DNA from: Eledone cirrhosa
Lineage: Eukaryota
Assembly (NCBI GenBank): GCA_964016885.1
Contig: OZ024743.1
Location: 279,868,001-279,932,000 of the forward strand
Length of the DNA stretch: 64,000 bases
Reading direction: 5' to 3'
The notes under the pieces were generated by a model. The model was not told the DNA's origin and ran no database searches. It saw only the letters and a list, made by a program, of their open reading frames with translations. Below, one piece after another: positions 9,197 to 60,456 of the stretch (position 1 is the stretch's first letter; the number at the start of each line of letters is the position of its first letter). A program made the position numbers and the translations under genes.

Positions 9197-9956
9197 ATAA
9201 GAAGACTGAGAAATATGTGTTGTTGAACGCACATGTCACAGCCTCTAACTCGCCTCATACTCGTGCCGCTAAAAATAGCAGCCGGTTTTATGGGACTAAA
9301 ATTAGCTCTACGTATGGAGCCGAGAGTATCATATATTGAGTTATAAACTCGAAATAGTCTTTTACAATTAAATAGCTCAAAGAAGGGAATATTTACGAGC
9401 CGTGTAATACAAATGAATATATGAGAGTGATGAACACTGATACAAGTATACATGTGTTTGAATTGCAAATCCATACGTAGAGCTAATTTTAGTCCCATAA
9501 AACCGGCTGCTATTTTTAGCGGCACAAGTATGAGACGAGTTAGGCGCTGTGACATGTACGTTCAACAACACATATTTCTCAGTCTTCTTAAGTATTTTGA
9601 AGTGAAAGGTACGAATTTCCTGGATACCCGCAGAAGAGCACAGGGATAGGGACTTTCGCTTAATAATTGTTGCGAAACAAATTTAGAATTTGTCCGAGTA
9701 TGACGGCCATTGCCAATATAGGTTTGTTATTTTTATTGATTTATTACTTTAAATCGAGACAGGCAAACCATATTATTTTAAATTAGTATTTTTCAACCTA
9801 GCTAACTTGGTCATTTGCAATTCTAACACATGTATACTTGTATCAGTGTTCATCCCTCTCATATATTCATTTGGATTACACGGCTCGGAAATATTCCCTT
9901 CTTTGAGCTATTTAATTGTAAAAGACTATTTCGAGTTTATAACTCAATATATGATA
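9197..9956 (+). mobile_element. Family A retrozyme-like element: ~1 monomer (9470-9956) plus inverted segment (9197-9470)
   Basis: 9197-9318 is the reverse complement of 9470-9590; 9327-9470 is the reverse complement of 9813-9956; 3' end abuts (TA)n. Confidence 0.85.
9624..9701 (+). ncRNA. Type I hammerhead ribozyme (family A, U4A variant)
   Basis: ATACCCG-CAGAAGA-GCA...TGC-GAAA; stem III ACAAATT/AATTTGT; GUC triplet; then CGAGTAT. Confidence 0.75.
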
Positions 9957-10055
9957 TATATATATATATATATATATATATATATATATATATATATATA
10001 TATATATATATATATATATATATATATATATATATATATATATATATATATATAC

Positions 10056-11100
10056 ATTATTCCGGGTTGAATCGGAGGTAACCACAGTAAGTAAGATACT
10101 CAATACATAGCAGAGTATAAAAGTTTTAATATAGATGAGATTCTACAGGACTAGAACTGATTCATTCTTTAGAAATCATCAGAAATCTGGCTTTCCAAAA
10201 ATAAATGTTGTGGTATTTATATCTTTTCACGTGCTAGGAGAGGGTGGGGAGTGGGATGGGTGGAGATCGTTGGTTGAAAGAAAAGTGAATTCATTAAAAC
10301 CTAATTCTTTATTTTTAGAGTGACAAAGGCAGAAAGGATTTCATAAACAAGTTCAGAATGGGGTGCCACTCCTTATTTTTAAGTTTCTCTTAAGCTAACA
10401 ATGCCTATATTTCAGGTGTCTATAAGATCGTTGGGGGTCGGTCATGGTTGATGGATTTAACGAAAAGGTAAACTCTTTAAAAGCTAATTCTTTAAAGTTC
10501 TACTTAGAGTGACAAAGGCCAAAAGAATTCTATAAACCAGTTCAAAATATTGGGTGCCTATCATATCATTATCGTCAAATTTCTCTTAAGCTACATTCCA
10601 GGTGTCGACAGACACATTCACACACACACACACACACACAGACATATATATATACACACATATATATATATACACATATATTTTGAACTGGTTTATAGAA
10701 TTCTCTTGGCCTTTGTCACTCTAAGAACTTTAAAGAATTAGCTTTTAAAGAATTTCCCTTTTCTTTAAATCCATCAACCATGACCGACCCCCAACGATCT
10801 TATAGACACCTGAAATATAGGCATTGTTAGCTTAAGAGAAACTTAAAAATAAGGAGTGGCACCCCTTTCTGAACTTGTTTATGAAATTCTTTCTGCCTTT
10901 GTCACTCTAAAAATAAAGAATTAGCTTTTAATGAATTCACTTTTCTTTCAACCAATGACCTCCACCCATCCCACTCCCCACCCTCTCCTACCACGTGAAA
11001 AGATATAAATAACACATTTATTTGTGGAAAGCCAGATTCCTGATGATTCCTAAAGAATGAAACAGTTCTAGTCCTGCAGAATCTCGTCTATATTAAAATA
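10056..11100. mobile_element. Family D fold-back HHR element (~425-bp inverted arms)
   Basis: Arms 10124-10550 / 10678-11098; (TA)n at both outer ends; internal diverged ~160-185-bp tandem duplication. Confidence 0.85.
11034..11084 (+). ncRNA. Type I hammerhead ribozyme (family D); mirror copy at 10138-10188 (-)
   Basis: AGATTC-CTGATGA-TTC ctaaa GAA T-GAAA-CAG...CTG-CA-GAATCT; the mirror copy has the GUA triplet but GAAT. Confidence 0.75.
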
Positions 11101-11115
11101 TATATATATGTACGC

Positions 11116-11570
11116 ATATGTTGGTAGATATACTAATTCTCTGTATTTATCTCCAAATTATTTATTTGTTGAGCAAACCTGCCAAATCCGCTACTAATTC
11201 ATTGGTGTGGTAGTATGCTTCTGTCATCTTACCAACCCACTCCTTCCGACTAGCCTCAGTGTCACGTGATTGATTCTTTAGAATCTGCCATTTGACCAGA
11301 AGCAGCGAACTTTTTCAGTGCATGGAATCCAGTCCCCGCTAGCTGTTCCTTCCACCGAATTATTATTATTTTTATATGAGTCCCTAGTGTCCGCGCATTG
11401 CCTGGAGACTTAGCTGAGAATAGACTTCCTGATGACGTAAGGAATTCTCGATGGTTATATTACGTAACTATCTCTATCCCATTACAGAAACTAATTAGTT
11501 GGAGTAAAAATTTTAGTAAGTAAGTTAATTTTTAATTTTTTTTTTAATTTGTCTTATTTTACGTCTTTCA
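11116..11570 (+). mobile_element. Family E HHR element, diverged partial monomer
   Basis: Homologous to the reverse complement of 20640-21080; CTGATGA at ~11429; ends ACGTCTTTCA|(TA)n. Confidence 0.75.
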
Positions 11571-11769
11571 TATATATATATATATATATATATATATATA
11601 TATATATATATATATATATATATATATATATATATATATACATGGGTGTATTTATATAGATATTAGACCTTTTAACTAAAATAACGTATTCGTACTGATA
11701 ATATTAGAAGTCGTTAGGAGATTATGATATCCTAAGGCGGGGAGTATACGATGAAGATATTTAATAATG

Positions 11770-12060
11770 GAAGAACGGACTGTTATGTGTGCGATGGTAG
11801 CACCTATTGTTGATTTCTATTGCCGCTATTACGCAAATATGTTTTTGTAGGAATTGGCTGATATTAATAGTTATTAATGCTGGATTTAAGGCTTGGAGAA
11901 AAAGGTATGATTATGTTATCGTAAGGGAAAGCTGGGATCAATAGTGTAGATAATGTAAAAGATGTGACAAGGATGATCATGAGCAATTTCTTCTGTTGAT
12001 AAAGGTGTTGCTCTGGGGTGACGCTCTGTGAGTGACATTCTGTTGTGTAGGCAGTACAAG
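11770..12060 (+). pseudogene. Highly decayed Penelope-like RT fragment
   Basis: Broken-frame residues resembling G-T-V-M-C-A-M-V-A-P...YANMFL*EL and AWRKRYDYVIV (cf. GTAMG..APxYANxFM and WxRYxDD). Confidence 0.4.
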
Positions 12061-58130: not shown

Positions 58131-58395
58131 TTTTCTGATAAAGGATTAATGTACGAAACGTAACGACATGCTTCCTACAATATCAAGTGTTAAACTAATA
58201 CATTTCATCATTGTACCGTGCTGATAGCTTTGTTGTTTCTTATATATAATATATATATATTTATATATATATATATATATATATATATATATATATATAT
58301 ATATATATATATATATATATATATATATATATATATATATATATATATATATATATATATATATATATATATATATATATATATATATATATATA

Positions 58396-58675
58396 TTGAG
58401 ATAAGCAGAACAAGTACAATTCAACCAATTTTTCAAAATAAATCAAAATTAATATACAATTAAAATTAATCAAAATTAAAAAATATAATATAAATATTTA
58501 CCTATTCAAATGGCCCTAACTGTACAGTTTCACGGTGCAAAACATTAAATATCACGAGGATATTAATGGAAAAGCAACGATCATCAGAGAAGCATATTCC
58601 TGTCCTAGGGTTAAAAACCCCAGGAACGACAAAATATATGACCTCACTCCAACTAATACAGGTCTAAAAGGTCGT
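58396..58675 (-). mobile_element. TA-flanked PLE/retrozyme fragment
   Basis: Contains the HHR at 58510-58595; (TA)n on both sides. Confidence 0.65.
58510..58595 (-). ncRNA. Type I HHR with intact core and long stem II
   Basis: ATGCTTCT-CTGATGA-TCGTTGC...CATTAA TATC/GATA TTTAATG...GCACCGT-GAAA-CTGTACAG-TT-AGGGCCAT. Confidence 0.75.
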
Positions 58676-58767
58676 ATATATATATATATATATATATATA
58701 TATATATATATATATATATATATATATATATATATATATATATATATACATATATATACGTATATAT

Positions 58768-58930
58768 AAAGAAGGAAGAGTGGTAAGGAACCAGATGGAC
58801 CATAACGCACCAGAGTACTCAATACTTAGGGTAGTAGAGTGGGTAATAGGAAAATGTTTGACCTCGACGGCAGAAATAGCCGTCCAAACGGCTTGAGTTC
58901 TGCCGTCGGGGTGAAACATTTTCCTATTAC
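58768..58930. mobile_element. Family F fold-back copy
   Basis: Reverse-complement homolog of 14701-14826 plus an inverted arm; TA on both sides. Confidence 0.75.
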
Positions 58931-59330
58931 GTATATATATATATATATATATATATATATATACACACACACACATATATATATATATATATATATATAT
59001 ATATATATATATATATATATATATATATACACACACATACATATATATATATATATTGAATTTCCATATAAATGACGAAATCAATACGGAAAGAAGAGCT
59101 TCGTTATTTCACTGCTTCCCTTCAAATCACCAGCACATCACTGCTGTTTTTCCTGTTATCTGACTTTCTTTTTGTCTTGTTTTGCTTTTACCACCTATTC
59201 CTATTTATATTTGCTTCCGGGTTTCTTAACATATCTTTGAAGTATAAATATATACATACATAGATGACATACATACATACGCACACACAGATATATATAT
59301 ATATATATATATATATATATATATATATAT

Positions 59331-60456
59331 ACAAGTTAATATAAATTAAAATATGATAAACACCAATATAAACATATATGTGTTTGTATTGTAAATGACC
59401 AAGTTAGCTAGATTGAAAAATACTAATTAAATTAATACAGTTTGCCTGTCTCGATTTAAAATAATAAATCAATAAAAACAAACCCATATTGGCAATAACC
59501 GTGATACCCGGACAAATTTAAATTTCAAAACCCAAATAAGTTTCGCAACGATAATTTAAAAAAGTGAAAGATTCCAATTTCTGTGGTCATCGGCAGGTAT
59601 GCAAAAAATTAGCATGTTTCACCTCGAAATATTTAGGAGGACTGGTATTCAAGTGTTAAATTGGTTTGTTTTTATTGATTTATTATTTTAAATCGAGACA
59701 GGCAAACTGTATTAATTTAATTAGGATTTTTCAATCTAGCTAACTTGGTCATTTACAATACAAACACTTATATGTTTATATTGGTGTTTATGATATATTA
59801 ATTTATATTAACTTGTATTTCACGGCTCAGAAATGCTTCTTTCTTTGAGCTAATTAATTGTAAAGGACTGTTTGAGTTTATAACTCTAAATATAATATAG
59901 TATTACGGCTCCTTTTGTTGAGCTAAATTTTAATACCATATAAACGGCTGTTATTTCTAGCACCATGAGTATGGGGATAGCTAGGAGCTGGAAAACCACG
60001 TGCGTTAACACTTGAATACCAGTCCTCCTAAATATTTCGAGGTGAAACATGCTAATTTTCTGGATACCTGCCGATGACCACAGAAATTGGAAACTTTCAC
60101 TTTTTTAAATTATCGTTGCGAAACTTATTTGGGTTTTGAAATTTAAATTTGTCTACGGAACAGGTTTGGATTTTGAAATTTAAATTTGTCCAGGTATCAC
60201 GGTTATTGCCAATATGGGTTTGTTTTTATTGATTTATTATTTTAAATCGAGACAGGCAAACTGTATTAATTTAATTAGTATTTTTCAATCTAGCTAACTT
60301 GGTCATTTACAATACAAACACTTATATGTTTATATTGGTGTTTATCATATATTAATTTATATTAACTTGTATTTCACGGCTCAGAAATGCTTCTTTCTTT
60401 GAGCTAATTAATTGTAAAGGACTGTTTGAGTTTATAACTCTAAATATAATATAGTA
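59331..60456 (+). mobile_element. Family A retrozyme-like element: ~1.4 monomers plus 330-bp inverted segment
   Basis: 59663-59902 repeated at 60217-60456 (period 554, including a 37-nt local duplication); 59331-59659 inverted; (TA)n on both sides. Confidence 0.9.
60063..60198 (+). ncRNA. Type I HHR (family A, U4C variant) with internal duplication; undisrupted mirror copy at 59504-59600 (-)
   Basis: GATACCTG-CCGATGA...GAAA...GTC-CAGGTATC (8-bp stem I). Confidence 0.7.

Follow-up and report, generated by a model that had tools for sequence, protein, structure and literature searches.

Type I hammerheads with covarying stems in family A, a likely non-autonomous Penelope-type repeat of Eledone cirrhosa

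Tandem repeats of animals that carry a type I hammerhead ribozyme are described as retrozymes of the non-long-terminal-repeat (non-LTR) type, with units of 170–400 nt (Cervera and de la Peña 2020, PMC7229834). A preprint by Li et al. argues that they derive from Penelope-like elements (PLEs), and no mollusc is mentioned in the portion available (bioRxiv 10.64898/2026.07.22.740005). The pseudo-LTRs (pLTRs) of metazoan PLEs contain minimal type I hammerheads that have an enlarged helix II and vary in sequence, with covariation, within one genome; their helix III is absent or palindromic and they need dimers. PLE hammerheads of fungi and protists have a large helix III and sit in endonuclease-less, telomere-associated autonomous elements, and that of Serpula is active as a single motif, with an observed rate constant (kobs) of 0.16 per min at 1 mM Mg2+ (PMC4209133). 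Poseidon of Anolis (PAc; PMC11167929) and Neptune (PMC8557442) are marked by two internal start sites of the reverse transcriptase (RT) that give rise to a 'tail', by AT-rich targets and by extension on both strands. A CX2-5CxxC linker of Neptune is linked to microsatellite bias, and the function of the hammerhead in Penelope-type transposition has been called unclear (PMC8557442). The subject of this report is family A, a dispersed repeat of Eledone cirrhosa of which three copies (A1, A2 and A3, pairwise identity 70–82%) lie in a 64,000-nt stretch of DNA, hereafter the window (assembly GCA_964016885.1, contig OZ024743.1, positions 279,868,001–279,932,000 of the forward strand).

The genome, of 3.0 Gb in about 30 large contigs, is AT-rich and microsatellite-dense. 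The dispersed family A element measures about 480–550 bp, and its units of 481–541 nt are non-coding, with a G+C content of 31–35% that falls within the under-45% range of non-LTR retrozymes. Family A resembles these retrozymes in its low-GC units, each with a type I hammerhead, in its head-to-tail copies and in its co-occurrence with PLEs. It differs in unit size, in occurring mostly as dispersed 1–1.5-mers with inverted arms rather than as arrays, and in its ribozyme, which has a stem I of 7–8 bp, a stem-loop II of 34–44 nt and a stem III of either at least 4 bp or a G·U-rich hairpin of 24–29 bp, compared with 1–2 bp in retrozymes. The enlarged helix II, the covariation and the insertion structures are shared with the metazoan pLTR hammerheads, whereas a helix III that is absent or palindromic is not; the large helix III is shared with the fungal and protist forms, whereas family A is a dispersed non-coding animal element. 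Its ends, targets and both-strand copies are like those of Poseidon and Neptune, from which it differs in lacking a protein, in having 3' ends 60–78 nt rather than 30–40 nt apart and in showing no sequence link to a specific autonomous family among the loci compared. Family A is best read as a hammerhead in a non-autonomous Penelope-type element that is non-LTR retrozyme-like, yet outside the described size range and with a different ribozyme architecture. It is likely that this dispersed repeat, with its covariation-supported type I fold, is copied in trans by a Neptune-type RT-endonuclease.

Covariation of the stems and retention of the core

Covariation between subfamilies, proposed in a first-pass annotation of the window from its three copies, is borne out by 24 natural representatives and is stronger than three copies could show. 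In these, 92.7% of 384 cells are paired compared with 74.4 ± 1.3% after shuffling (none of 500 shuffles is as high), 87 cells hold double changes compared with 30.4, and controls with slid partners pair in only 25–47%. Double changes occur in 12 of the 16 pairs (stem I, 8/8; stem II, 2/3; stem III, 2/5). Unaided, RNAalifold finds stem I alone, with double changes at all seven pairs and a covariation term of −3.03. To take relatedness into account, changes were also counted on a tree of 292 columns that lie outside the hammerhead (mean distance 0.34, a value raised by the inclusion of some non-element flank). There, stem I pairs 1–7 have 12 double changes, together with six wobble changes and one break that all lie on tips; two further events trace to one damaged A5b copy. 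The same alternative pairs (for pair 1, G-C in 43 and A-U in 18) recur in a ribozyme-blind sample anchored downstream, in which 67 of 100 pieces span the hammerhead.

These sequence comparisons support the view that the fold has been kept by selection. The first-pass annotation had proposed selection on ribozyme function; what stands, for the source lineages only, is selection on the fold. Core and flank have equal rates of private change, both at G/C sites (16/745 compared with 81/3320) and at A/T sites (14/1056 compared with 85/5995), and selection therefore acts on the lineages that give rise to insertions and not on the inserted copies. Single copies decay neutrally after insertion.

The family is large. 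A pattern of the core plus an upstream motif has 1,738 exact matches in the genome (three for the reversed control) and a 31-nt downstream pattern has 2,529 (none for the control); both counts are lower bounds, and short fragments may be far more numerous. Hammerhead stems lying outside the pattern are present in 29 of 30 loci cut from the core pattern, the set including one chance hit (L223) and two loci that were partly misread or truncated (L203 and L213). Contigs from four sequencing runs of one study confirm the family. The 203 distinct hammerhead-bearing copies fall into 28 clusters at about 12% distance, and the subfamily core counts leave out six of them that have no anchor or are truncated or deleted. 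Two architectures are seen, with a short stem III (A1, A2 and A5) or a long one (A3, A4, A6, A7 and A8). A4 is young, with 95–100% identity among its top hits.

Three helices surround the core, with helix I open to the flanks, as in the type I topology. The A1 hammerhead occupies 9623–9701 (+), with stem I at 9623–9630/9695–9701, the core at 9631–9637, stem-loop II at 9638–9673, GAAA at 9674–9677, stem III at 9677–9693 and a predicted cut after 9694. That of A2 lies at 15295–15376 (−), with stem I at 15376–15369/15302–15295, a canonical core at 15368–15362, stem III at 15320–15304 and a predicted cut after 15303. That of A3 lies at 60063–60198 (+), with stem I at 60063–60070/60191–60198, the core at 60071–60077, stem III at 60123–60189 and a predicted cut after 60190. 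The stems, cores and cleavage triplets are thus present where the first-pass annotation had placed them, and the long stem-loop II that it described measures 36, 38 and 42 nt in A1, A2 and A3, respectively. Its list of three copies omitted a fourth complete hammerhead, of A3 type, at 59601–59503 (−), in which a 37-nt deletion shortens stem III, and a half hammerhead at about 15761–15804 (+). Other parts of its description need qualification. The letters C-N-GA-N-GA are kept in all three copies, but U4 is replaced in A1 (by A) and A3 (by C). The GUC triplet holds for the window copies and is not universal, A4 having GUA in 43 of 45 copies. A short stem III does not describe A3, where it is a G·U-rich hairpin of 65 nt. 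The term monomeric, which it also used, draws on the structure, from which the family A hammerhead is probably monomer-competent.

U4A is a subfamily trait of A1 (32 of 34 copies, with two gaps) and U4C of A3 (38 of 39), where C·C also replaces G10.1-C11.1 at the base of stem II in 32 of 39 copies; both copy sets were chosen for their similarity to the window copy. Two stem I mismatches, C·A in A1 and U·U in A2, are private to the window copies. Folded by themselves, the A1 and A2 stretches of the window show no stability beyond that of shuffled sequences (z +0.38 and +1.51), and in neither case is the full hammerhead the structure of lowest energy. A4, the youngest subfamily, has a canonical core. 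Among the 24 representatives U4 is canonical in 19 and all other core columns are kept (C3-U4-G5-A6-N7-G8-A9, G12-A13-A14-A15.1 and U16.1-H17), a conservation that is partly circular since many were picked by the core pattern. Positions outside the search pattern are kept as well (U16.1 and G16.2, 24/24 each; U4, 19/24; G10.1-C11.1, 22/24), compared with only 27 invariant columns among the 292 outside the hammerhead. The commonest cores among the ribozyme-blind spanning pieces are canonical (29) and U4A (14). Some A3-type copies also lack C3 (four of the 67 spanning pieces, some from one insertion), which suggests that the core went on decaying while the lineage remained able to insert. In stem III of the U4A copies (A1, L031–L060) a double change segregates between G-C and A-U (about 8 and 22 copies), hinting that pairing there stayed under selection after U4A arose.

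Of the 24–29 pairs of the long stem III, 5–9 are G·U. Its folding energy is −16 to −25 kcal/mol for RNA and −1 to −8 kcal/mol for DNA in 7/7 representatives, and the stem is thus an RNA-level structure. A recent duplication in A3 was rejected as its origin, as it is common to A3, A4, A6, A7 and A8 and the short A3 forms are deletions. A check for ADAR editing in the long stem gave no clear A>G excess (A3, A>G 3/708 and T>C 3/1514; A4, 3/1069 and 2/1542), with counts too small to exclude a weak effect. Rfam hammerhead models are not among the listed 150 of 205 matches in the window and have no match in 15200–15720 or in six loci.

Insertion structure and the copying machinery

The unit is too short to encode an RT and has no shared coding flank; no upstream flank of any kind is shared across 90 loci. 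Among 118 loci scored for insertion marks, with overlapping loci left unmerged, a head-to-tail junction is seen in 81 and an inverted piece in 77; of the 85 free unit ends, 79 enter (TA)n. Free 3' ends fall at two UA-rich sites 60–78 nt apart in 152 of 218 cases, and 133 of these 152 enter TA repeats; the two sites flank a small hairpin. Most inverted insertions combine the two kinds of 3' end (A2, 13/21; A1, 12/16; A3, 7/10), and nine of 11 A4 insertions are classed as 'other' because the A4 inner 3' site lies outside the bin. A cluster of A3 3' ends near the cut site was dismissed as an alignment artefact of the stem III repeat. The sense strands of the units fold better as circles than their shuffles (z −3.3 to −7.1; 20 shuffles). 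An origin as a tRNA-derived SINE (short interspersed nuclear element) was also rejected, there being no B box on the sense strand of four units and inconsistent hits in two of the four at a relaxed ARAGORN threshold.

The window copies have these marks. The A1 monomer (9470–9958, +) runs at its 3' end into a (TA)n tract at 9947–10054 and is preceded by an inverted arm (9199–9470, −) that joins the 3' part of a unit, a head-to-tail junction and the 5' part of a unit. The A2 monomer (15036–15544, −), which also enters (TA)n, is accompanied by a partial upstream tandem unit (15547–15710, −; 166 nt with 96% identity to the monomer 3' end) and by an inverted arm (15714–15804, +) that holds the 5' half of a hammerhead and ends in (TA)n. 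The A3 monomer (59905–60454, +), again entering (TA)n, follows a partial upstream tandem unit (59660–59903, +; 244 nt, 98.8% identity) and an inverted arm (59329–59659, −) whose end lies in (TA)n at the inner 3' site. In their partial tandems, inverted copies and tails, family A insertions match the structures described for PLEs (PMC8557442) and the two RT start sites demonstrated in vitro (PMC11167929). The statement of the first-pass annotation that the hammerhead is unlike the minimal ones of PLEs holds for stem III, which is paired here and palindromic in the minimal form found in autonomous PLEs of the same genome, but not for the element, the insertion marks of which are themselves Penelope-like.

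A partner was sought by DNA and profile comparison. The genome holds 10,596 GIY-YIG candidates, of which 150 were scored, and 46 loci of about seven families were compared with family A; none of the 46 has element flanks homologous to it, and the assignment of a Neptune-type partner is accordingly indirect. Five of the 46 loci, fetched for this other purpose, give strong family A hits that are separate insertions. Weak hits occur in L126 and L130 (E 0.002–0.3), that in L126 being a different inverted repeat. The autonomous GIY-YIG elements also end in (TA)n, and four Neptune-type loci (L121, L122, L130 and L132) have in their 3' regions a minimal hammerhead whose core is of the U3-A8 type and whose helix III is palindromic. 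Other hammerheads with a stem II of 32–36 nt, an 8-bp stem I and a palindromic helix III are found at L126:33, L134:3962 and L136:8488, and a long stem II seems common in this genome.

The favoured mechanism starts from source arrays that would be transcribed into multimeric RNA. About ten 519-bp units, all of an A4 variant, stand head to tail in one array (L246:154–5280, near 230.49 Mb); this array and the young canonical subfamily are candidate sources. In lineages with a canonical core the hammerhead, with its 7–8-bp stem I and paired stem III, would cut as a monomer to release unit RNA, which may be circularized. Once (TA)n had been nicked by a Neptune protein, reverse transcription would begin at either of the two UA-rich sites, the RT copying more than one unit straight through the cleavage site of an uncut or religated template and copying from both DNA strands giving the inverted arms. 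An uncut or religated template is indicated because 67 of the 100 pieces in the sample anchored downstream run through the cleavage site and the 33 that are 5'-truncated all start elsewhere. Nine of these 33 5' breakpoints lie close to a short palindrome, 11–21 nt 3' of the cleavage site, and are partly paired arms of one event (L277–L348 sample). Cleavage would probably be useful in the long term, since core and stems are kept between lineages, but dispensable for individual insertions, given that lineages with U4A or U4C/C10.1 amplified; cleavage and circularization from multi-unit sources would be the favoured long-term reason for retention of the fold. This fits the amplified U4A and U4C lineages, a viable natural U4C variant in a viroid (PMC3088659) and the insertion of hammerhead mutants in vitro (PMC11167929). 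In A2-type RNA, core position A13 would in addition be misread in about 35–40% of passes, most likely because it is modified in the template, which is the least certain step.

A number of observations count against family A as a cleaving, trans-mobilized PLE. Two of the five shuffle measures, which count pairs or types, are not significant (96/500 and 112/500), and the shuffle control ignores relatedness. By constrained folding the hammerhead is the lowest-energy fold in only three of 12 representatives and lies 1.2–6.6 kcal/mol above it in the other nine, with a stem I pairing probability of at least 0.95 in 11 of the 12. The unit exceeds the described retrozymes in size and its 3' tail exceeds 30–40 nt, two or more hammerheads share a strand in only 15 of 118 loci, and both the shared flanks in the 46 GIY-YIG loci and the 5' ends at the cleavage site are missing.

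Two other explanations draw on some of the same evidence. The three-way junction could be kept for RT recognition or for RNA stability, with self-cleavage weak or unimportant family-wide. The amplification of U4A and U4C/C10.1 lineages, the G-C/A-U double change segregating within the U4A lineage, the 0/33 5' ends at the cut site and the lack of effect of Poseidon hammerhead mutants on insertion in vitro (PMC11167929) would all suit such a role. It is nevertheless improbable given the retention of U16.1, G16.2, U4 and G10.1-C11.1 against the few invariant columns outside, the fully canonical core of the youngest subfamily and the viability of U4C in a viroid (PMC3088659). Still less probable is that family A is a solo pLTR, or the 5'-truncated end, of an autonomous PLE not yet found. 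Every insertion mark is Penelope-like and only 150 of the 10,596 candidates were scored and 46 loci read; however, head-to-tail junctions join the 3' end of a unit directly to its own 5' end with no open reading frame between them, the 90 loci share no upstream flank and a pure ten-unit array exists.

Variation at core position A13 of subfamily A2

Core position A13 of the A2 copy in the window (15322, −) is an A. Among 57 A2 pieces it is A in 34, T in ten, G in nine, C in two and deleted in two (23/57 non-A), whereas its neighbours differ in only 1–4 of the 57, and it is A in all copies of A1 (42/42), A3 (48/48) and A4 (58/58). A pattern in which A13 alone is free gave A 63, G 20, T 13 and C 4 (hand count of the first 100 of 119 matches). 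Counted by hand, the first 100 of 488 short-stem matches include 21 non-A cases, distributed over A2 types (12/35), a further subfamily (3/3), U4A types (4/33), A5 types (1/20) and one other, while the first 100 of 1,349 long-stem matches contain a single non-A. At 40%, change at A13 is about 28-fold more frequent than the background at A/T sites (1.4%).

The states of A13 carry no tree signal (20 steps compared with 20.6 after shuffling, P = 0.42; 53 rows), whereas ten of ten other polymorphic columns do, these being the columns from which the tree was built. All states recur in three A2 sub-lineages, and A13 differs between the two pieces of one insertion in five of ten cases. Non-A states do not rise with copy age (12/28 younger and 11/28 older copies, p = 0.97, over a narrow age range). 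Taken together the sequences point to a per-pass error at insertion.

As to the cause, two broad explanations are about equally plausible, each somewhat short of an even chance. In one, the variation comes from a modified RNA base in the template. A more specific and rather doubtful version has A13 carrying an m1A-like (1-methyladenosine-like) modification in germ-line RNA that blocks self-cleavage, so that the RT copies the uncut RNA and misreads the base, altering about 40% of the genomic copies. The RT signature of m1A is similar in that a single A is read as T, G or rarely C, or is skipped; a low share of C is reported where an A follows the m1A (PMC4787781), and deletions have been described at m1A sites (PMC7144921). 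It differs in that genomic copies rather than cDNA libraries are seen here and in that the context is not the motif of TRMT6/61A (G[ATC]TCNA with −5/+3 pairing; PMC6191711), the A2 site having one extra base between GUU and CGA, which speaks against modification. In the other explanation the hot spot reflects DNA-level damage in a GCGA-capped hairpin, in single-stranded intermediates or in the chromosome, or an RT error at an unmodified RNA structure. The failure of the TRMT6/61A motif favours it (PMC6191711), as does the absence of an excess of 5' ends at A14, which m1A arrest would be expected to give, in a sample with few or no A2 copies. A competing hairpin with a GCGA loop is, moreover, most populated in A2 and A2b (0.20–0.31 compared with 0.00–0.10 elsewhere). 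A mix of G > T > C plus deletions also fits bypass of an abasic site. The roughly 28-fold excess over background, and the match of the low-C mix and of the deletions to m1A (PMC4787781, PMC7144921), stand against it, and the lack of a rise with copy age, over that narrow range, argues against steady chromosomal damage. It is unlikely that a few amplified source loci with a dead ribozyme, or a systematic sequencing or assembly error, created the pattern. In favour of this reading, uncut RNA would be the natural full-length template, position 15322 is not among the listed 40 of 63 contig-check rows and A13-to-T is not among the changes listed for X1 and X3 (contigs drop minority variants in both cases). 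Against dead sources or error are the missing tree signal, the recurrence of all states in three sub-lineages and the discordant two-piece insertions, as well as the constancy of A13 in A1 and A3, which share the 5' context of A2. A systematic error would also hardly produce three wrong bases and deletions at one position.

Window context and implications

The window contains a further family A piece, a 5'-truncated A2-like fragment of the 3' 130 nt (538–667, −) that adjoins (AT)n at 473–547. Hammerhead-like minimal motifs with a short palindromic stem III, not of family A, lie at 2915 (−) and 14913 (+), the former resembling one in locus L124. An inverted repeat at 10116–11106, with 435-bp arms at 94% identity, adjoins the (TA)n tract of A1 and is possibly another TA-targeted element. 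Another dispersed repeat that ends in (TA)n stands beside family A insertions at 14633–14866, 24029–24151 and 58718–58941. A broken long interspersed nuclear element (LINE), RTE-like on reading and with endonuclease- and RT-like frames in several pieces, is present at 35800–38242 (+), and more RT-like fragments are found at 13461–13958 (−) and 57688–58182 (−).

A squid genome paper counts 235 Rfam hammerhead loci (PMC6962438). An octopus repeat annotation reports 893 recently active 'unclassified SINE' families and, in the portion available, never mentions ribozymes (PMC13282606). Family A is not described in the literature on cephalopod or mollusc hammerhead elements that was searched, for which subscription coverage was limited, and the family may be catalogued under another name. 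Neither a natural U4A hammerhead lineage nor a ribozyme whose genomic copies show a modification-like hot spot is described in the literature searched.

Elements like family A escape Rfam and may sit among the octopus 'unclassified SINE' families. Family A, in which more than ten hammerhead subfamilies differ in core (canonical or U4 variant) and in stem III (short or very long), offers a natural series for the role of the ribozyme in Penelope-type transposition. Through it a retrozyme-like unit is connected, at the nucleotide level, with the Penelope mechanism of two start sites, independently of the phylogenetic argument of the 2026 preprint. If the A13 variation is indeed a modification signature, retrocopies could serve in the search for RNA modifications, and such modifications can regulate ribozymes; family A would then hold a natural ribozyme that is switched off by base modification, read from DNA in a monomeric-type hammerhead lineage missed by Rfam models, with the genome as a fossil record of the modification in the catalytic core.

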